A stretch of 64,000 nt of DNA from an uncultured Chloroflexia bacterium (GCA_963813535.1 CAWEZH010000003.1:160001-224000); one strand, 5' to 3'; positions 10,802 to 19,618 are shown, numbered from the stretch's first letter. Program-made: numbers and translations. The notes: generated by a model not told the origin, from the sequence alone.

Positions 10802-10880
10802 CCGCCCCTGACGGATGTCCATGCCGGATCGCTGACCGACGTCAGCGGCGGTCGGCTCCGCTCGGAGCGATGCTCCGGGC

Positions 10881-11372
10881 ATGGACACCACGAGCGCCGC
10901 TGCCCTCCGCGTCCACCGGTTCCTCGAGACGGAGCCGGTGATCTGGCTGTCGTCCATCCGTCCGGACGGGGCGCCCCACCTCGTTCCGACCTGGTTCATC
11001 TGGGACGGCGAGACCGTCGTCATCCGCTCGAAGCCGCACGCGCGCAAGGTCCGCAACCTCGCCCATGAGCCGCGGGCGATGCTGGCGCTCGGTGACGCCG
11101 ACGACGACTTCGACGTCGGGCTGCTGGAGGCACGCGCCGAGGTCATCGACGGCGACCGCCCGTTGCCGGAGGCGTTCGTGGCGAAATACCGCACGCGGAT
11201 GGCGGGCCTCGGTCTGACGCCGGCCGAATTCGCGGTGACCTATTCGGCGACGATCCGCCTCACGCCCGCGCGGGCGCTCGGCTGGCACGGGCGCTCGGCG
11301 CCGCGCTCCTGGTTCGACGCCGTGCGCCGCCTGGCCTTCGGCCGACCGGCACTCGCGCTCGGCGCAGCCTGA
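10881..11372 (+). CDS. Pyridoxamine 5'-phosphate oxidase-like (PPOX class, possibly F420-dependent) protein
   Basis: WLSSIRPDGAPHLVPTWF and KVRNL motifs. Confidence 0.82.
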   Translation: MDTTSAAALRVHRFLETEPVIWLSSIRPDGAPHLVPTWFIWDGETVVIRSKPHARKVRNLAHEPRAMLALGDADDDFDVGLLEARAEVIDGDRPLPEAFVAKYRTRMAGLGLTPAEFAVTYSATIRLTPARALGWHGRSAPRSWFDAVRRLAFGRPALALGAA

Positions 11373-11495
11373 CGTTCGGTAGGTCGGGGCACTCGACGCG
11401 GCTCCAGACGGCAGGGGTCCATACTCCCGCCGATCGTCGGCTCTGACGGACGCCGCACGGCGCCTGTCATCCAGCGGACACATCGTTCCCCGGGC

Positions 11496-11520
11496 GCAAC
11501 ATCGGGCGCGTCCAGGCGTT
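11496..11520 (+). promoter_or_regulatory. ECF-type promoter upstream of the ECF sigma gene (likely autoregulatory)
   Basis: GCAAC (11496-11500), 16 nt, CGTT (11517-11520); matches the general ECF -35 AAC / -10 CGT pattern. Confidence 0.6.
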
Positions 11521-11597: not shown

Positions 11598-12260
11598 ATG
11601 GAACGTACCAGCGACGAGTCACCCGAAAGCGGCCCGGCCCCAGAGGCGGGCGGACCGCAACATCCCGACGGGCTCGACGTCTCAGCCGGCGTGAACGATG
11701 CGACGACGATGGTCGTGCACGACGGGGATGTGCTGACGACGCGACAGCCCATCGTCGATACGGGCGGCGTGGTCGCTGCGATCTACGACCGCCATCAGGC
11801 CGAACTCTTCTCGTTCGCGCTGCGGAGCTGCCGCGACCGGGAAGCCGCCGAAGATCTCCTGCACGAAGCCTTCGTCCGCCTCATCACCGAGGTCGAGGCG
11901 GGTCGGATGCCGGAGAACGTCCGTGCCTGGCTGTACCGGGTCACCGCCAATCTCGTCGCATCGCGGGGGCGACGCGCGACCGTCGCTAAGCGTTGGCTTG
12001 CCACTGTCGGATCGCCCGAGACCACTGTGCGCGGACCCGAGCCGAGCTTCCTGGATCAGGAACGCCGGGATGATCTCGATGACGCACTCGGTGAGCTTGG
12101 CGCGGACGCGCGGGCCGCCCTCCTCATGGCGGCCGACGGGTTCCGCGGCGATGAGATCGCGACCGCGATCGGCCGCAGCGCCCTCGCGACTCGCTCGTTG
12201 ATGTGCCGGGCGCGCCTCCAGCTCCGGGAGCGCCTCGGGAGCCGGGAGTCATGGGCATGA
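11598..12260 (+). CDS. ECF-family RNA polymerase sigma factor
   Basis: Region 2 AEDLLHEAF...AWLYRVTAN; region 4 EIATAIGRS...RSLMCRARLQLR. The true start may be later (e.g. GTG 11691). Confidence 0.92.
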   Translation: MERTSDESPESGPAPEAGGPQHPDGLDVSAGVNDATTMVVHDGDVLTTRQPIVDTGGVVAAIYDRHQAELFSFALRSCRDREAAEDLLHEAFVRLITEVEAGRMPENVRAWLYRVTANLVASRGRRATVAKRWLATVGSPETTVRGPEPSFLDQERRDDLDDALGELGADARAALLMAADGFRGDEIATAIGRSALATRSLMCRARLQLRERLGSRESWA

Positions 12261-15200
12261 TCGACCACGCACGCGCGCAGGAGCTCGCCGCGATCGCGCT
12301 CGATTTCGAGCTCGCGCCCGACGATCGCGCCGCGCTGGATCGTCACCTCGCCGATTGCGAGGCGTGTCGAGCGGTGGCGGCGGATCTGGATGCGATCCAA
12401 CACGCGATGGCGGAATTTCCGTCGGAGGACGCGCCCGACCGACTGCGACGGCGGATCCTCGACCCGGCCGGCGAGCGGGCCCGCGGGAACCAGGCGTCCC
12501 GGTGGAACCTCACACGGATCCCCCGCCTGCAGGCGTTCGGCATCGCTGCCGCTGCCGCCGTCGTGGCGATCGCCGTCGTCGCGTCACTGCTCCCATGGCA
12601 GGGACGGCCCACGCCAAGCGTGGCGATCGTCGGCCCGACCTCGACGCCCTCAGGCGAGAGCCCGACGCCCGGTACGACGGCCGCGCCGTCCGCCACCGAA
12701 CGACCACCGATCCTTGCCTACACCCCTCGGGCCGAGCTGACGCCTGCCTCCGGGGCCGGTCCCGTGGTGGCTCCCGATGCCGAGTTCCGACTCGTCAGCG
12801 TCGACGGCTCGCCGGCGGTCGACCTTGCCGCTCGGCTCACCGTCGAGCCGGCCCTCGACCTTGCCGTCGAACCCGAGCCGGACGGGACGGCTGCTCGGAT
12901 CCGACCGACGAAGCCCATGCAGCCGGGCACGGTGTACCGGTTCACGCTGGCCGGGGCCGACGGCCGTCCGGAGGACAGCTGGGCCTTCCAGACCGAGCAG
13001 GCCGTCCGGGTCGTCGCTACGACCCCTGCTGATACCGAGACCGACGTGCCTGTTGACACCGGGATCGAGATCACGTTCGACCAGGACGGTGTCGTCGACC
13101 CCGCGTCGCACGTGACGATCCAACCCCGGACACCCGGGCGGTTCGAGTGGCGCGATCGCACGCTGGCCTTCGTCCCGCAGCGCCTGAAGCCCGCCACGGT
13201 CTACACGGTCACGGTGACGCGCGGTGTGCAGGTCGAGGGCACGGATGAGGTCCTCGCAGAGGACTTCCGCTTCCGATTCGAGACTGCCGCGAAGCCCGGC
13301 CGGGCGACGACGTCGTTCGGGTTCCCCGATGACGTGCTCGAAGTGCCGACAGCCGGCCGCGCGACGCTGCCGCTATGGGCCTTCCGCGATGACGACACCG
13401 TCCCGAGCGCGGCCGCCATGGAGGTCTACCGGTTCCCGGATCGCGCTGCCGCGATCGATGGATTCCGACAGTTGCGCCGGTCGTCGCGATGGGCGCGCTG
13501 GTCGGTCGCGGACGCGGTCCCGACCGCGGGCCTGCGACGCGTCATGAGCTTCCGCGCCGCGCTGCAACGCGGGGCCGAATCGCTGTGGTTCCGATTGCCG
13601 GACACCCTCTCGGCCGGCTGGTACCTCGTCCAACAGCCATCCAAGACCCGTCCCACGCAGGTCATCCTCCAGGTCACGGACGTCGCCGGCTACCTGAGCC
13701 TGTCAGACAGCCGCATGCTGGTCTGGGCGAACGACCTCGCCGACGGCCGGCCGCTGTCCGGCGCTACGGTGACCACCGAGGGTGCCGACCTGGGGCGCAC
13801 CGGTGCGGACGGCCTGCTCCTCGTCGACACGCCAGCGCCGCTGCGCGCCGACGGGCAGACCGGCTGCGCCAACGGACCGTGCGATCGAGTCGTCATCGTC
13901 CGCACGCCGAACGGCCGATCGATGTTCATGCCGGCCGACAGCCCGTTCGGCGTGGGCGGCGGCGGATCTGGGTTGCCCCAGAACGCCCAGAGCCATTGGC
14001 TCGTCTACCACACGGACCGGCTCGTCTATCGACGAACCGACACGATCAACGTGTGGGGCATGGTCCGCGACCGCGCCAGCGGCGCGGTCCCCGAGACCGT
14101 CGATGTGGCGTTGACGGCGGGCTTCAGCGATCCGACGCCCCCGCCGATCGCCTCCATGCGTCTCCAACCCTCGCCGTCCGGAGCCTTCACCGGCTCGTTG
14201 CCGATCGCGAACCTGCCCGAAGGCTCCTACGACATCATCCTCCGGGCCGGTGCGGACGAGATCGGTTCGACCAGCGTGCAGGTCGCCCGCATCCTCAAGC
14301 CCGCTTACAAGCTCGACGTGGAGACCGGCCGTCGCGTCTACATCGAGGGCGACCGTATCCGTGTCACCTCGCACGCCACCTTCTACGAGGGGTCACCGGT
14401 ACCCGGTGTCCCGCTGCGCATCGATGGCCGCGTCCAGCGAAACGTGACGACGGATCGGACCGGCACGGCGACCTTCGGAACTGTCGCCCGGGCCGACCCG
14501 GACATCGACGGATCGAGTTGGGACTATCAGACTGTCGGGGTCAGCCCCGCGCGGGCGGAGGAAGGCGACATCGCCGGGTCGACCCAGGCTTTCCTCGTCT
14601 TCCCCAGCAGCCGCACGATCCGCGGCGAGGCGACCATCGGATCGGGCCGCGTGCGGACAACGGGCACGGTGCACGTCGTCGATCGCGACCGCCTCGAAGG
14701 GGAGATCGCGGCAGGCCGATCGCCGTGGGACCTCGATCCGCGGGGCAAACCGGTGGCCGGCGCGACCGTCACGATCAGTTTCATCGAAGAGATCCCGTCG
14801 CGGGTGGAGGTCGGGACCGAGTACGACTGGATCGAGAAGAAGGTCGTGCCGATCTACCAGTATGAGATCGAGACCAACTTGGTCAGGTCGGTCAAGGTCC
14901 GGACCTCCGCGAACGGATCGTTCTCGGCGTCGATCGCCGATCCAGGCAAGAGACACGACTTCCAGGTGCGGATGACCGTGGGCGATCCGGACGGCCATCC
15001 CGCAGGCATGGTCGCCTACGCGAGTGCGGGCCGGGCATCGACGGAAACCGTCGACTATGCCTCGCTGGCTCCCACGTCCTCGTCCGTCGCCCGTCCGAAC
15101 GGCTACGCCATCGGCGATCGCATCGATCTCACCGTCACCGACAACCGACGCACCCGAGGCGGTCGGTACCTGTTCGAATTCGCCCAGCGCGGGCTGCGCG

Positions 15201-17509
15201 AGGCGACCGTCCAGAGCTCGCCCCGCCTCGTGACGACGTTCGAGCGTTGGGCGGTGCCGAACGCCGTCATCGCCGCGGTCCATTTCACGGGGACGCGCTA
15301 CGTCCAGTCCGACGAGTACTACGCGTCGTTCCGCGCGAGCGACCGGGAAGTCGACGTCGCCTTGACGCCCGATCGCGCGCGGTACGCACCGGGCGATCCC
15401 GTCACGCTCGACGTCAGGACGCGCGATCGTGGTGGCGCGCCCTTGGCGGCGTCGGTCGTCCTCCAGGCCATCGATGCGAAGCTGTTCGACATCGGGGCGG
15501 CCGCGGACACCGATCCGCTGACTGAGCTCTACAGCTCCATCGCAAGCGGCGTTCGCACCCGTTTCGCGTCACATCGCCAGCGGCAACGACCGGGTGAGGG
15601 CGGGGACACGGGCGGTGGGGGCGCTGACCGGATCGACTTCCGGGACGCCCTTCTCTTCGAGCTCGTCGAGACCGGCGCCGACGGTCGCGCCCGGGCCACG
15701 TTCCGGCTGTCCGACGACCTGACCTCGTGGCGGGTGAGCGGCGCGGCCATCACCGACGATCTCGGGGCCGGCATCGGGTCCATCGAGATCCCGGTCGGCC
15801 TGCCCTTCTTCGTGGATGCGTCGATCGCGCCGGAGTACCTGGCCGGCGACCGACCGTCGATCCAGGTCCGCGCCTATGGCCAGGGGCTCGCGCCCGGTGC
15901 CGACGTGCGCATGACCGTCGCCTCCGACAGCCTCGGCCTGGTCGCTCAGACCATCCGGGCGAAAGCATTCGAGACGGTGACCGTCCCGATGCCGAAACTC
16001 AGCCCCGGCCGGCACAGCGTCACGATCACGGCCCGCTCCGGCAGCGGGACAGCCGTCATGCTCGACAAGCTCACCCGCACGTTCGACGTCATCGCGTCGC
16101 GGCTGGAGCGCACCAGGACGACGTATACCGATGGGATCGGTGCCCGCCCGATCGCCGGCGGGGCGGGTCTGACGAACCTCGTCATCTCGGATAGCAGCGC
16201 CGGACGCTATCTGCCGTTGCTCCTCGACGTCGCCGGTAACGAGGGCGCACGTCTCGAGCGCTCTCTTGGGGCGGCGATGGCATCGTCGTTGCTGGCTCGT
16301 CGGTATGGCGCAGCCGAAGGCGCCTGGCGACCCAGCGATCTCGACGGCGACCTGTACCAGGCTGCTGATGGCGGCATCGCTCCCCTGCCCTACGCGAGCA
16401 GCGACCTGGCACTCACGTCGCTCGTTGCGATCGTCTCCCCGGACGACTTCCGGGCCGCGGACCTTCGCTCGTACCTCGGCGACGTCAAGGACGACCCGAA
16501 GTCAACGCGCGAGCGACGGATGTATGCCCTCGCCGGTCTCGCCGGCGTGGGGACGCCCGTGCTCCCGCAGATCCGGGCGGCGGCGGCGGACCGAGGGCTC
16601 ACCGTCCGCGAGCGGCTGATGATCGGGCTGGGCGCCGCTGCCATCGGCGATGCCGCGACCGCCCGAACGATCGCCAGTGAGCTGTGGACGGCGGCTGGTG
16701 AACAGCTGGCCGCCCAGGCGCACCTTCGTGTCGGTGAGACCGTCGCCGATAGCACGGATGCGACCGCACGTATGGCTCTCCTGACCGCGGCGATCGGCGA
16801 TGGTCACGCGCCGGCACTGTGGGCATATGTCGAGGCGAACCCGAGCACGGAGGTGCCCTACGACCTGTTTGCGGTCTCCTTCGTGGAGCGGCTGATCGAC
16901 CGCCTACCCGTGGAGCCGGCCACCTTCGCCTACGTGATCGACGGCAAACGCACGGTGGTCGAGCTCGGCATGGGCGAGTCATTCCAGTTGACACTGACGG
17001 CGCCCCAGCGAGCGAACCTCCAGCTCGAGAGCATCGAGGGCTCCCTCGGGATGACGACGACCTGGGCGGAACCGGTCGCGGCATCGTCATTCGAACGCGA
17101 TCCGGACGTCACGATCCGCCGCTCGCGGACGCCCGCGACAGTGATCGGCACGGCAGATCTGGTCCGTGTCGACCTCACGGTCCGTTTCGGCCCGAAGGCC
17201 CCGGCGGGCTGCCATCTGGTCGCCGAGCAGGTCCCGTCCGGGCTGATCCCGCTCAACCCGATGTCGACCTCGCCGGACGGCGACGAGGCTTCGATCGCGG
17301 ATCCGCGGTTCGCGCAGCCGTTCGCCGTGGATGGCCAGCGCGTGCTGTTCTGCGCCGAGCCGACCAAGAAGCAGCGAACCGTCCGCCTTCGCTACTACGC
17401 GCGCGTCATCACCCCCGGGACATACGTGTGGGAGCCAGCGGTCGTCGAGTCCCGAACGAGGGCGGATCGAGCCGCGCTGACGGCCAGGGCCACAGTCAGG
17501 ATCCGCTGA
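12257..17509 (+). CDS. Zinc anti-sigma (ZAS/zf-HC2)-TM-Ig-like-alpha-2-macroglobulin fusion protein
   Basis: H4-x25-H30xxxC34xxC37, one TM, Pro/Thr linker and Big_5-like domains. These are followed by A2M motifs TDRLVYR, TPDRARYAPGD, GGGGADRIDF, TGADGRARATFRLSDDLTSWR, QAADGG and LRYYARVITPGTY. ATGA overlap with the sigma stop. Confidence 0.9.
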   Translation: MIDHARAQELAAIALDFELAPDDRAALDRHLADCEACRAVAADLDAIQHAMAEFPSEDAPDRLRRRILDPAGERARGNQASRWNLTRIPRLQAFGIAAAAAVVAIAVVASLLPWQGRPTPSVAIVGPTSTPSGESPTPGTTAAPSATERPPILAYTPRAELTPASGAGPVVAPDAEFRLVSVDGSPAVDLAARLTVEPALDLAVEPEPDGTAARIRPTKPMQPGTVYRFTLAGADGRPEDSWAFQTEQAVRVVATTPADTETDVPVDTGIEITFDQDGVVDPASHVTIQPRTPGRFEWRDRTLAFVPQRLKPATVYTVTVTRGVQVEGTDEVLAEDFRFRFETAAKPGRATTSFGFPDDVLEVPTAGRATLPLWAFRDDDTVPSAAAMEVYRFPDRAAAIDGFRQLRRSSRWARWSVADAVPTAGLRRVMSFRAALQRGAESLWFRLPDTLSAGWYLVQQPSKTRPTQVILQVTDVAGYLSLSDSRMLVWANDLADGRPLSGATVTTEGADLGRTGADGLLLVDTPAPLRADGQTGCANGPCDRVVIVRTPNGRSMFMPADSPFGVGGGGSGLPQNAQSHWLVYHTDRLVYRRTDTINVWGMVRDRASGAVPETVDVALTAGFSDPTPPPIASMRLQPSPSGAFTGSLPIANLPEGSYDIILRAGADEIGSTSVQVARILKPAYKLDVETGRRVYIEGDRIRVTSHATFYEGSPVPGVPLRIDGRVQRNVTTDRTGTATFGTVARADPDIDGSSWDYQTVGVSPARAEEGDIAGSTQAFLVFPSSRTIRGEATIGSGRVRTTGTVHVVDRDRLEGEIAAGRSPWDLDPRGKPVAGATVTISFIEEIPSRVEVGTEYDWIEKKVVPIYQYEIETNLVRSVKVRTSANGSFSASIADPGKRHDFQVRMTVGDPDGHPAGMVAYASAGRASTETVDYASLAPTSSSVARPNGYAIGDRIDLTVTDNRRTRGGRYLFEFAQRGLREATVQSSPRLVTTFERWAVPNAVIAAVHFTGTRYVQSDEYYASFRASDREVDVALTPDRARYAPGDPVTLDVRTRDRGGAPLAASVVLQAIDAKLFDIGAAADTDPLTELYSSIASGVRTRFASHRQRQRPGEGGDTGGGGADRIDFRDALLFELVETGADGRARATFRLSDDLTSWRVSGAAITDDLGAGIGSIEIPVGLPFFVDASIAPEYLAGDRPSIQVRAYGQGLAPGADVRMTVASDSLGLVAQTIRAKAFETVTVPMPKLSPGRHSVTITARSGSGTAVMLDKLTRTFDVIASRLERTRTTYTDGIGARPIAGGAGLTNLVISDSSAGRYLPLLLDVAGNEGARLERSLGAAMASSLLARRYGAAEGAWRPSDLDGDLYQAADGGIAPLPYASSDLALTSLVAIVSPDDFRAADLRSYLGDVKDDPKSTRERRMYALAGLAGVGTPVLPQIRAAAADRGLTVRERLMIGLGAAAIGDAATARTIASELWTAAGEQLAAQAHLRVGETVADSTDATARMALLTAAIGDGHAPALWAYVEANPSTEVPYDLFAVSFVERLIDRLPVEPATFAYVIDGKRTVVELGMGESFQLTLTAPQRANLQLESIEGSLGMTTTWAEPVAASSFERDPDVTIRRSRTPATVIGTADLVRVDLTVRFGPKAPAGCHLVAEQVPSGLIPLNPMSTSPDGDEASIADPRFAQPFAVDGQRVLFCAEPTKKQRTVRLRYYARVITPGTYVWEPAVVESRTRADRAALTARATVRIR

Positions 17510-18641: not shown

Positions 18642-18694
18642 GACCTGCATCATCGCCGACGGCGGGTCTCCCGCGCGTGGGTATGCTGGACATC

Positions 18695-19618
18695 GTGACC
18701 GAGCGGACCATCGTGATCGTCGGCTCCCCGACTGCCCTCGGCGGACACTTCGCGGGGATGGAGCGCAGTCCAGCGCTGCTGCGCGACGTCGGCGTGCGCG
18801 ACCGCCTCGCCGCCCGTCCCGGCCTGACCGGGACGACCTGGCTCGATCATGGCGATGCCGCCAACGATCCGGGCTGGGTCGCGGATCCCGACCGGCGTGC
18901 GAAGAACCGTGACCTGATCGCCGCCTATCTCGGTCGGCTCGCGAGCCACGTGCAGACGGGTCTCGTACAGGGCGACGGCGGCGCGATGCTGCTCACGCTG
19001 GGCGGCGACTGCACCACTCACGCCGGAGCGATGGCCGGCATCCGCCGCGCTCGACCCGGGATCCGGCTCGGGCTCGCGTGGTTCGACGCGCATGGCGACT
19101 TCAACACACCGGACACGACACCGTCGGGGAACGTCTGGGGCATGCCGTTCGCGCTCGCCTGCGGGCGTGGTGACGAGAAGCTCGTCGCCGCTGCGGAGGG
19201 TCCGAGCGTCCGCGAGATCGATGCCGGTCTGTTCGGCGGTCAGGTGCTCGACGAGACGGAGTCGCGCATGATCGCCGCCAGCGGCGTGGCGCAATTCGGC
19301 TCGGGGATGCTGGCGGACCCGGCCGGTCAGGCGGCCGTCGCGGCCTGGAGCGGGTCCGTCTCGGCCCGCGTCGATGCCTGGTACATCGCGTTCGACCTGG
19401 ACGCGCTCGACGCGTCGGGACGATGGGCGATCGCCACTCCGGAGCCGGACGGTCTGTCGCTCGAGACCGCGGTCGCGACCGTCCGGGCGATCGCCACGAG
19501 CGGTGCGCCGGTCATCGGCTTCGGCGCGACGGCGGTGATGGAGCGCGACGGTGCCGACCTGCACGGAACGGTCGATGCCATCGCGGCGCTGACAGAAGCG
19601 GCCCTCGCCGAGCCATAG
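18695..19618 (+). CDS. Arginase/ureohydrolase-family protein with atypical active site
   Basis: GGDC, WFDAHGDFNTP, FDLDALD; start GTG 18695 lies 7 nt after TATGCT. Confidence 0.85.
   Translation: MTERTIVIVGSPTALGGHFAGMERSPALLRDVGVRDRLAARPGLTGTTWLDHGDAANDPGWVADPDRRAKNRDLIAAYLGRLASHVQTGLVQGDGGAMLLTLGGDCTTHAGAMAGIRRARPGIRLGLAWFDAHGDFNTPDTTPSGNVWGMPFALACGRGDEKLVAAAEGPSVREIDAGLFGGQVLDETESRMIAASGVAQFGSGMLADPAGQAAVAAWSGSVSARVDAWYIAFDLDALDASGRWAIATPEPDGLSLETAVATVRAIATSGAPVIGFGATAVMERDGADLHGTVDAIAALTEAALAEP

Follow-up and report, generated by a model that had tools for sequence, protein, structure and literature searches.

The stretch of DNA analyzed here, 64,000 nucleotides from an uncultured soil Chloroflexota genome of 3.28 Mb (G000; GCA_963813535.1, CAWEZH010000003.1:160001-224000; referred to as the window), contains a two-gene module that links an extracytoplasmic function (ECF) sigma factor to an anti-sigma factor whose extracytoplasmic part is predicted to be a whole alpha-2-macroglobulin (A2M). 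Two open reading frames (ORFs) on the plus strand make up this module, i.e. the sigma factor gene at 11598-12260 (220 amino acids) and a 1750-amino-acid ORF at 12257-17509. The latter encodes, in this order, a zinc-type anti-sigma (ZAS) domain, a single transmembrane (TM) helix, a Pro/Thr/Ser tether and a complete bacterial A2M that lacks the thioester. An ECF anti-sigma factor fused to a whole A2M appears to be an undescribed architecture. Its most likely function, put forward tentatively, would be to replenish a membrane-anchored protease trap through a loop that induces itself and responds to proteases.

The two genes are joined by an overlap in which the TGA of the sigma ORF (12258-12260) shares the tetranucleotide ATGA with the ATG of the large ORF at 12257, and no stop or frameshift was found inside 12257-17509. 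A first-pass annotation, made from the sequence alone, had described this overlap, an H-x25-HxxxCxxC motif, one TM helix followed by a Pro/Thr linker, and an ordered series of Big_5, MG2, bait-region, A2M, TED-like and C-terminal macroglobulin (MG) domains on one unbroken chain. All of these points hold in the results described below, the domain order being recovered by Pfam, by AlphaFold2 (AF2) models and by Foldseek.

The cytoplasmic anti-sigma domain (12257-12535, residues 1-93) carries the signature H4...H30-L-A-D-C34-E-A-C37 with H4-x25-H30 spacing, as read from the translation; H4 is encoded at 12266-12268 and H30xxxC34xxC37 at 12344-12367. H4, H30 and C37 never vary among 64 aligned full-length homologues, in which C34 is conserved to at least 90%. 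A zf-HC2 match to residues 18-38 reaches 21.0 bits, just short of the cut-off of 22.2, and the NCBIfam anti-sigma model NF052375 aligns with residues 14-115 (E 3.5e-10, below cut-off). Judged by its sequence, the domain falls within the class I ZAS definition, i.e. HxxxCxxC plus an upstream His in an N-terminal helical domain. It leads into the single TM helix (12536-12595, residues ~94-113, also read from the translation), which is flanked by Arg residues on its N-terminal, inside-facing side and coincides with a hydrophobic peak in the relatives. The subsequent extracytoplasmic tether of some 55 residues (12596-12766, residues 114-170) is Pro/Thr/Ser-rich, variable in sequence and rich in indels, with alignment insertion sites at residues 125, 139, 142 and 150.

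The upstream gene (11598-12260, plus strand) encodes 220 residues when read from the ATG at 11598, or 189 residues when read from a GTG at 11691. Its product matches Sigma70_r2 (62-127, E 1.2e-11) and Sigma70_r4_2 (158-209, E 2.1e-06), both above the Pfam cut-offs and with no other family detected by Pfam, as well as the NCBIfam sigma70-ECF model TIGR02937 (62.1 bits against a cut-off of 42.9). By its domain content it is classified as an ECF (group 4) sigma factor, with sigma-2 and sigma-4 domains only and neither region 1.1 nor region 3. When a profile of this protein and 19 orthologues was compared with the PDB, the closest solved relatives were SigH, SigE and SigL of Mycobacterium tuberculosis and SigW of Bacillus subtilis (E 2.3e-11). 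The orthologue profile scores the sigma factor of the window at 297 bits and the other ECF sigma factors of the genome at no more than 171 bits. Its predicted complex with residues 1-92 of the large ORF scored 0.79 versus 0.32 for the best control, with agreement between runs of at least 64% of contacts and a partner pLDDT of at least 80. Of 80 solved complexes, 58 reached the mark applied to such scores, as did 2 of 110 mismatched pairs; these counts are only rough as own alignments were used. The score supports binding, but the two proteins represent a textbook pair and the pass may thus reflect likeness to solved complexes. Codons 1-31 of the sigma ORF (11598-11693) contain one of the two promoters described below (P2), and the encoded peptide GPQHP, which is kept in the closest relatives, is specified by its -35 box. 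The in-frame GTG at 11691-11693 (codon 32), followed by AAC (MN[DT]A in relatives), may be a real or alternative leaderless start.

The ectodomain could not be assigned by simple sequence comparison. A whole-protein sequence search of the PDB returned one marginal match (7s62, E 0.0059), so that fold comparison was required. Pfam places all six families that had been named for checking on the one chain, several of them at or below cut-off: besides zf-HC2, these are Big_5 (residues 248-343, 12998-13285; 51.5 bits), MG2 (585-676, 14009-14284; 32.8 bits, exactly at cut-off), A2M_BRD (949-1077, 15101-15487; 19.0 bits, below 22.7), A2M (PF00207; 1132-1203, 15650-15865; 27.6 bits, above 21) and bMG10 (1632-1732; 19.4 bits, below 26.2). 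The matches below cut-off are backed by AF2 and Foldseek. Modeling was carried out in two pieces from alignments of 60 homologues and gave a pLDDT of 84.0 and a pTM of 0.75 for residues 551-1750 and a pLDDT of 86.4 for residues 160-760. For both models, the best PDB matches in Foldseek were native ECAM of Escherichia coli (5a42, E 1.5e-46 and 7.8e-17) and Salmonella A2M (4u48), followed by complement C3/C4/C5, TEP1, CD109 and A2ML1; the N-terminal model also matched the MG0-NIE-MG1 fragment of ECAM (4zjg). Structure-based identity to solved A2Ms amounts to 11-16%. Trypsin-activated ECAM (4ziq) is among the top matches of the 551-1750 model, and its higher TM-score compared with native ECAM (TMq 0.49 vs 0.35) is not read as a conformational state.

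In these models, the N-terminal A2M body of Ig and MG domains (12767-15562) is followed by the bait-position loop (15563-15637) and the A2M family domain. An all-helical TED-like domain (16193-16897; residues 1313-1547, model residues 763-997) is nested between beta segments that resemble CUB on both sides, and a bMG10-like C-terminal MG domain, together with the stop codon, closes the ORF (17150-17509; beta strands at model residues 1068-1199 with high pLDDT). The models thus identify the ectodomain as a complete bacterial A2M fold, i.e. MG chain, bait region, CUB-TED-CUB and C-terminal MG. The CxEQ thioester motif is absent from the protein of the window (P0002), and among the 64 full-length homologues it occurs in one only (P0008, residue 935), outside the TED-like domain. 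PF00207 has a single match in the genome, which is this A2M, and a search of the ESM Atlas gave only clusters of the same kind (Big_5 + A2M + A2M_BRD).

The bait-position loop spans residues 1103-1127 (SHRQRQRPGEGGDTGGGGADRI) and is predicted to be disordered. It is the sole long segment inside the body with a pLDDT below 50 (model residues 553-577), and it sits exactly between the A2M_BRD and A2M matches, which is the position of the bait in A2Ms. Its pattern, SH-x-x-P-x(3-6)-G-E-GGDTxGGGG, contains few variable residues and recurs in relatives with and without the anti-sigma domain. A different element was observed among distant A2M-family relatives of 1740-1865 amino acids (a 19-row alignment, A5). 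These carry a Hint/PT-HINT/intein-like domain of ~135 residues, which Pfam places between A2M_BRD and A2M, i.e. at the bait position, in the three of them that were scanned (P0232, P0253, P0264). All 19 rows share an invariant Cys after GAEGGG at the start of this domain and an invariant HN at its end (consensus YVHN). The residue that follows is D, E, A or Q in 18 rows and Ile in P0192. Since it is never C, S or T, the domain seems to be of the self-cleaving BIL type and not a splicing intein. It would be unusual for an A2M to process itself or to form a backbone thioester.

The fusion is not confined to this genome. A protein search scored 8000 candidates and yielded 263 relatives at E <= 1e-5. 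Among the matches listed (120 of the 263), many cover 100% of the query at 45-87% identity, and those that bear a name are called 'Ig-like domain-containing protein' and come from Candidatus Limnocylindrales or Chloroflexota metagenome-assembled genomes (MAGs). For a survey of loci, hidden Markov models (HMMs) of the anti-sigma domain, the ectodomain and the sigma factor were compared with six-frame ORFs at 79 loci from species-representative genomes. The first-pass annotation had suggested a search for this architecture beside ECF genes, and the full anti-sigma-A2M fusion was indeed found, in register, at 23 of the 79 loci, with the orthologous sigma gene directly upstream on the same strand in 21 of them; the other carriers are Limnocylindria-type MAGs as well. 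A further four loci encode shortened or frameshift-split anti-sigma domains (L037, L048, L051, L078), two are cut by contig ends (L018, L070), and about 50 are unfused. Five genome matches span residues 1-1750 without stops. Sequencing data bridge the junction, for which a check of reads had also been advised: an 817-nt short-read contig (run X1) aligns to 12027-12843 with 62 substitutions and no gap, and thereby reaches from the end of the sigma gene through the anti-sigma domain and the TM helix into the tether. The fusion does not stem from an assembly artefact. Among the sequencing runs listed, none contains more than 27% of the sampled words and none is listed as RNA; run X20, guessed to be RNA, contributed two contigs at 13771-14257 only. 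At many long-read MAG loci (L016, L038, L039, L044, L051, L056, L071, L078, L080, L085, L090 and others), the A2M gene is split into 2-13 frame pieces, which are probably sequencing-error frameshifts rather than pseudogenes.

The unfused relatives shed light on how the fusion may have evolved. Ahead of the A2M, they typically have a cytoplasmic tail that is short and variable, a single TM helix and a Pro/Ser/Thr/Ala linker, with a lipobox-like signal instead of the TM helix at L042, L065, L073, L075 and L077. At L023, L025, L028, L030, L057 and L041, the N-terminus reads MFDxERA..., similar to the anti-sigma start MIDHERA, or MIDNDRARA, which is joined straight to the TM helix at L041. Nine loci retain the TM-proximal part of the anti-sigma HMM alone. 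The MFDxERA and MIDNDRARA starts look like relics of deleted anti-sigma domains. In an unrooted FastTree phylogeny of 42 intact ectodomains (38 of 80 rows were left out as frameshifted or partial), all ZAS forms fall into one 22-row clade with a support of 100, in which they are basal and the TM-only and relic forms are nested, with at least four state changes. Hence, a single gain of the fusion followed by several losses would be the simplest reading of the unrooted tree and the relics.

On a larger scale, a comparison of the first 1200 residues with 1.84 billion representative proteins gave 4855 matches at E <= 0.001. An anti-sigma domain is present in only four of the best 150 of these, which marks the fusion as a local invention within a family of membrane-anchored A2Ms that is far larger. 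The anti-sigma domain may have been donated by a paralogous pair that adjoins the A2M gene in some genomes and comprises an ECF sigma factor (HMM E ~1e-71 to 1e-74) and its own anti-sigma factor of 600-630 amino acids. This pair is located divergently upstream at L037:264-2773 (minus strand) and L048:312-2821 (minus strand) and downstream at L066:7898-10308 (plus strand), and the anti-sigma factor of the L066 paralogue carries an SH3_3 domain. The distant relatives P0232, P0244, P0253, P0260 and P0264 possess cytoplasmic N-terminal segments of 70-120 residues, considered as candidates for anti-sigma domains of another type; Pfam gave no match for them, and a metagenome scan with P0232 returned no locus.

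Two putative ECF-type promoters precede or overlap the sigma gene on the plus strand. P1 (11477-11528) comprises an upstream box GACAC (11477-11481), a -35 element GCAACA (11496-11501) and a -10 element CGTT (11517-11520). P2 (11655-11693) comprises GCAACA (11657-11662) and CGTC (11678-11681), after which comes the in-frame GTG mentioned above. Across loci, P1 follows the consensus GCCGACAC-N14-G(C/A)AACA-N15-GCGT(C/T), 130-210 nt upstream of the sigma core, while P2 follows G(C/A)AACA-N15-GCGTCxCA, 39-57 nt upstream of the core in most loci, with [GA]TG AAC some 10 nt further on. This dyad is enriched in 22 sigma-upstream regions as compared with 0-1 controls. A position weight matrix (PWM) was built from 28 sites in other loci, excluding the window and its near twin L013, and both strands of the genome were scanned. 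Among the 21 matches above 17 bits, P2 of the window ranks first (24.6 bits) and P1 third (23.3 bits). With the two promoters of the operon itself at the top of the genome-wide ranking, it appears that the sigma factor acts mainly to produce the A2M, which speaks for an alarm triggered by proteases or by consumption of the trap. The ATGA overlap and these sites of the AAC...CGT type make it appear that the sigma gene is co-transcribed with the anti-sigma gene and autoregulated. Sites elsewhere lie inside the 3' end of a glycosyltransferase gene (with a GNAT gene next to it), inside a FAD/Fe-S oxidoreductase gene, and ahead of YecM-like and TadE-like genes; the latter are G000:C2:1843102 (L095, 21.4 bits), upstream of a TadE-like pilus gene cluster, and G000:C3:254072 (L094, 22.2 bits), upstream of a YecM-like gene.

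The same matrix was informative for loci that lack an upstream sigma gene. At nine of these 57 (L040, L041, L048, L064, L072, L073, L076, L079, L091), the sole match of the locus lies on the gene strand just upstream of the A2M start, and none of the 57 loci showed a match elsewhere or on the opposite strand. L040 and L079 are near-duplicates, which leaves about eight independent cases. This pattern suggests that a sigma factor of this kind acts in trans on unfused A2M genes with such a promoter, and that the A2M came under sigma control before the fusion arose.

The surroundings of the module in the window are made up of genes for SurE, a YidB-like protein, an AI-2E transporter, an aminotransferase and a histidine phosphatase, as assigned by a Pfam scan of the neighboring ORFs. 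Two ORFs on the minus strand that flank the region, one of 213 amino acids (10842-11483) and one of 304 amino acids beyond the aminotransferase gene (18650-19564), gave no Pfam match. When the ORFs flanking 22 fused loci were clustered, none was common to more than six of them, save the sigma gene, the A2M gene and the antisense shadows of the latter.

How might such a module work? At rest, the anti-sigma domain would hold the sigma factor that is made with it. Extracytoplasmic proteases would then attack the A2M and its tether by either of two routes. In the first, the bait would be cleaved and the protease trapped, followed by a cut in the tether; in the second, the exposed tether would be clipped directly. 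The tether might be cut by the captured protease, by another protease after a conformational change, or by direct attack. Either route would remove the bulky ectodomain and leave a stub, which could be cut by a site-2 protease, followed by degradation of the anti-sigma domain and liberation of the sigma factor. The latter would transcribe its own operon from P1 and P2 and thus supply more sigma factor and more membrane-anchored A2M, i.e. the module would replenish a consumed protease shield. Intramembrane proteolysis is feasible, as two M50 (site-2 protease) loci are found in the genome.

The first-pass annotation had proposed that the A2M is rewired as a protease receptor, in which cleavage of the bait causes the anti-sigma factor to be destroyed. 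The architecture behind this idea is confirmed, and the path from bait cut to sigma release is kept as a conditional proposal that is amended on two points. Firstly, a site-2 protease is expected to need a short extracytoplasmic stub. A cut near residue 1110 would leave more than 1000 residues on the TM helix, and both halves of MagD are reported to stay together after bait cleavage (PMC5764988), so that a bait cut alone would be insufficient and a cut in the tether would also be needed. Secondly, the bait loop does not appear to be specialized for signaling. That the ectodomain is a true protease receptor, with bait cut or capture relayed via tether cut and site-2 protease to the ECF sigma factor, so that the cell would gauge the consumption of its trap and rebuild it, is regarded as somewhat doubtful.

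Several observations weigh against the replenishment loop as a whole. At ~25 residues the bait-position loop is short, a conserved Gly-rich motif (GGDTxGGGG) takes up half of it, and fused and unfused relatives have the same loop; it is thus neither a hypervariable broad-spectrum bait nor adapted to signaling. The promoters rest on consensus matches and not on mapped transcription starts, and the other genome-wide PWM matches give no coherent set, for which reason no wider regulon is claimed. No candidate for a site-1 protease is linked to the locus according to the Pfam scan of neighbors and the clustering of flanks. Two full fusions lack an adjacent sigma gene (L019, L026), and the best sigma-profile match in the L026 genome (G006, 93% complete) is a paralogue at 188 bits, versus 297 bits in G000; both may be orphan anti-sigma-A2M proteins. 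The anti-sigma domain and the sigma gene were lost repeatedly with the TM-anchored A2M being kept, which, together with the rarity of the fusion among the representative matches, indicates that signaling is dispensable for the A2M's own function. Finally, protease binding, cleavage and sigma release are steps that we infer.

Some of these points would be accommodated by an alternative, albeit unlikely, scenario, in which the module provides dosage or assembly feedback for a huge exported protein. Here, no protease would be sensed, the sigma factor would be released upon misfolding, failed export or turnover by housekeeping quality control (stress of the envelope or of secretion in general), and the A2M would be the effector only. 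Such a function would fit the facts that the operon's own promoters are the strongest in the genome with no other coherent targets, that anti-sigma domain and sigma gene disappear repeatedly without loss of the A2M, and that fused and unfused forms have the same loop. Yet, a co-translated stoichiometric pair with positive autoregulation needs a trigger, and this model names none. The ZAS-TM anti-sigma factors studied so far respond to defined extracytoplasmic insults. Feedback also offers no reason why it is an A2M, specifically, that has stayed fused at 23 loci with identities of 45-87%.

Alternatively, the ectodomain could have the fold of an A2M without being a protease trap. It would then bind another ligand or surface (cell wall, polysaccharide or another cell), as thioester-less relatives with a C3/TEP/CD109 fold can, and the ECF sigma factor would report this ligand. 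The missing thioester, the half-conserved loop, the low identity to solved A2Ms, the N-terminal Big_5 Ig domain and the absence of the pbpC and mag-operon contexts are all compatible with this idea, which is nonetheless rated as quite improbable. The best whole-length fold matches are two bacterial protease-trapping A2Ms, and the disordered loop sits exactly at the bait position. Furthermore, MagD, which is thioester-less as well and has a bait of ~7 residues, is reported to trap protease nonetheless (PMC5764988).

A very improbable reading is that the zinc-Cys site acts as a cytoplasmic thiol/redox switch as in RsrA and RshA, so that oxidative stress frees the sigma factor and the A2M is an anchor or passenger. 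An HxxxCxxC motif that is invariant or nearly so and a weak NCBIfam match to RsrA (TIGR03988, E 6e-06) point in this direction, but the match lies far under its cut-off (26.3 vs 62.5 bits), and the best PDB sequence match of the anti-sigma domain, itself weak (E 0.034), is membrane-bound RsiW (5wuq_C). To our knowledge, redox-sensing ZAS proteins are soluble, and an ectodomain of 1590 residues would be implausible as a passenger. Lastly, the chance that a mis-assembly or read-through of separate small anti-sigma and A2M genes created the ORF is practically nil in spite of the frameshifts in this gene at many related long-read MAG loci, given that relatives are single-frame too, including the five full-length matches without stops, that anti-sigma domain, TM helix and A2M are in register at 23 of 79 loci, and that an independent short-read contig bridges the junction without gaps.

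The statement of the first-pass annotation that no characterized system shares this architecture stands as far as full-text literature searches reach: queries that combined anti-sigma with alpha-2-macroglobulin, macroglobulin or A2M returned nothing relevant, the supplementary domain tables of ECF classification papers being outside their reach. Bacterial A2M physiology is still argued chiefly from gene neighborhood, such as PBP1c and the mag operon, and the module described here connects an A2M directly with a transcription factor. Should this link be functional, a P1/P2 reporter would provide a genetic read-out of A2M engagement, and nature would offer, in this module, an anti-sigma factor in which sensor and induced effector are one. 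If the ectodomain should indeed be a protease receptor, a bacterial circuit would tie a protein of the A2M/complement fold to gene expression. The findings also add to the kinds of extracytoplasmic domain known from ECF anti-sigma factors and show that, in Chloroflexota, A2Ms can be anchored by a TM helix of their own. Natural controls are offered by the comparison of loci, namely the single fusion clade, the several losses of the anti-sigma domain, and the ECF-type promoters in front of some unfused A2M genes.

Among known systems, SigW-RsiW of B. subtilis is similar to the module in that the gene for an ECF sigma factor shares a transcript with that for an N-in, single-TM anti-sigma factor bearing HxxxCxxC, and the genome described here also has site-2 protease genes. 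RsiW is destroyed by regulated intramembrane proteolysis, for which PrsW is the known site-1 protease. In contrast to the small ectodomain of RsiW, however, that of the window is a 1590-residue A2M, with no linked site-1 protease. Large functional extracellular domains on anti-sigma factors are known from SigI-RsgI of cellulolytic clostridia, where the sigma factor switches on proteins directed at the substrate that is sensed. These differ from the module in belonging to the RsgI_N anti-sigma family and in having carbohydrate-binding sensors with no protease-trap fold.

As for the ectodomain, type I A2Ms (ECAM/YfhM, SaA2M) provide the best fold matches of both halves, albeit at a structure-based identity of only about 15%, and have the same domain order. 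Unlike these, the protein of the window lacks CxEQ, carries a TM helix and an anti-sigma domain in place of the lipoprotein signal, and has no pbpC among the Pfam-scanned neighboring ORFs. It resembles more closely in this respect the type II A2Ms (Pseudomonas MagD, E. coli YfaS), which are defined by a lost thioester and a retained bait (PMC5764988); like them, it has no thioester and keeps a short bait-position loop. MagD is reported to be associated with the inner membrane and to trap protease non-covalently after bait cleavage (PMC5764988). MagD is encoded in a six-gene mag operon and binds MagA, MagB and MagF, whereas the window holds a two-gene module with no such context at the locus, genome-wide searches for mag-partner families not having been made. 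In addition, the membrane tie of MagD is described as running via partner proteins and not via its own TM helix, and MagD is not known to be linked to a sigma factor.

The closest parallel to the proposed logic is found in SigV-RsiV. RsiV is reported to be a direct receptor of lysozyme, whose binding licenses proteolysis of the anti-sigma factor, and the liberated sigma factor induces a countermeasure (PMC4183432, PMC5014341). In both cases, the ectodomain of an anti-sigma factor would engage a hostile enzyme. RsiV, on the other hand, is described as neither a ZAS protein nor an A2M and binds lysozyme rather than being cut by it, while in the module of the window the countermeasure would be the sensor itself.

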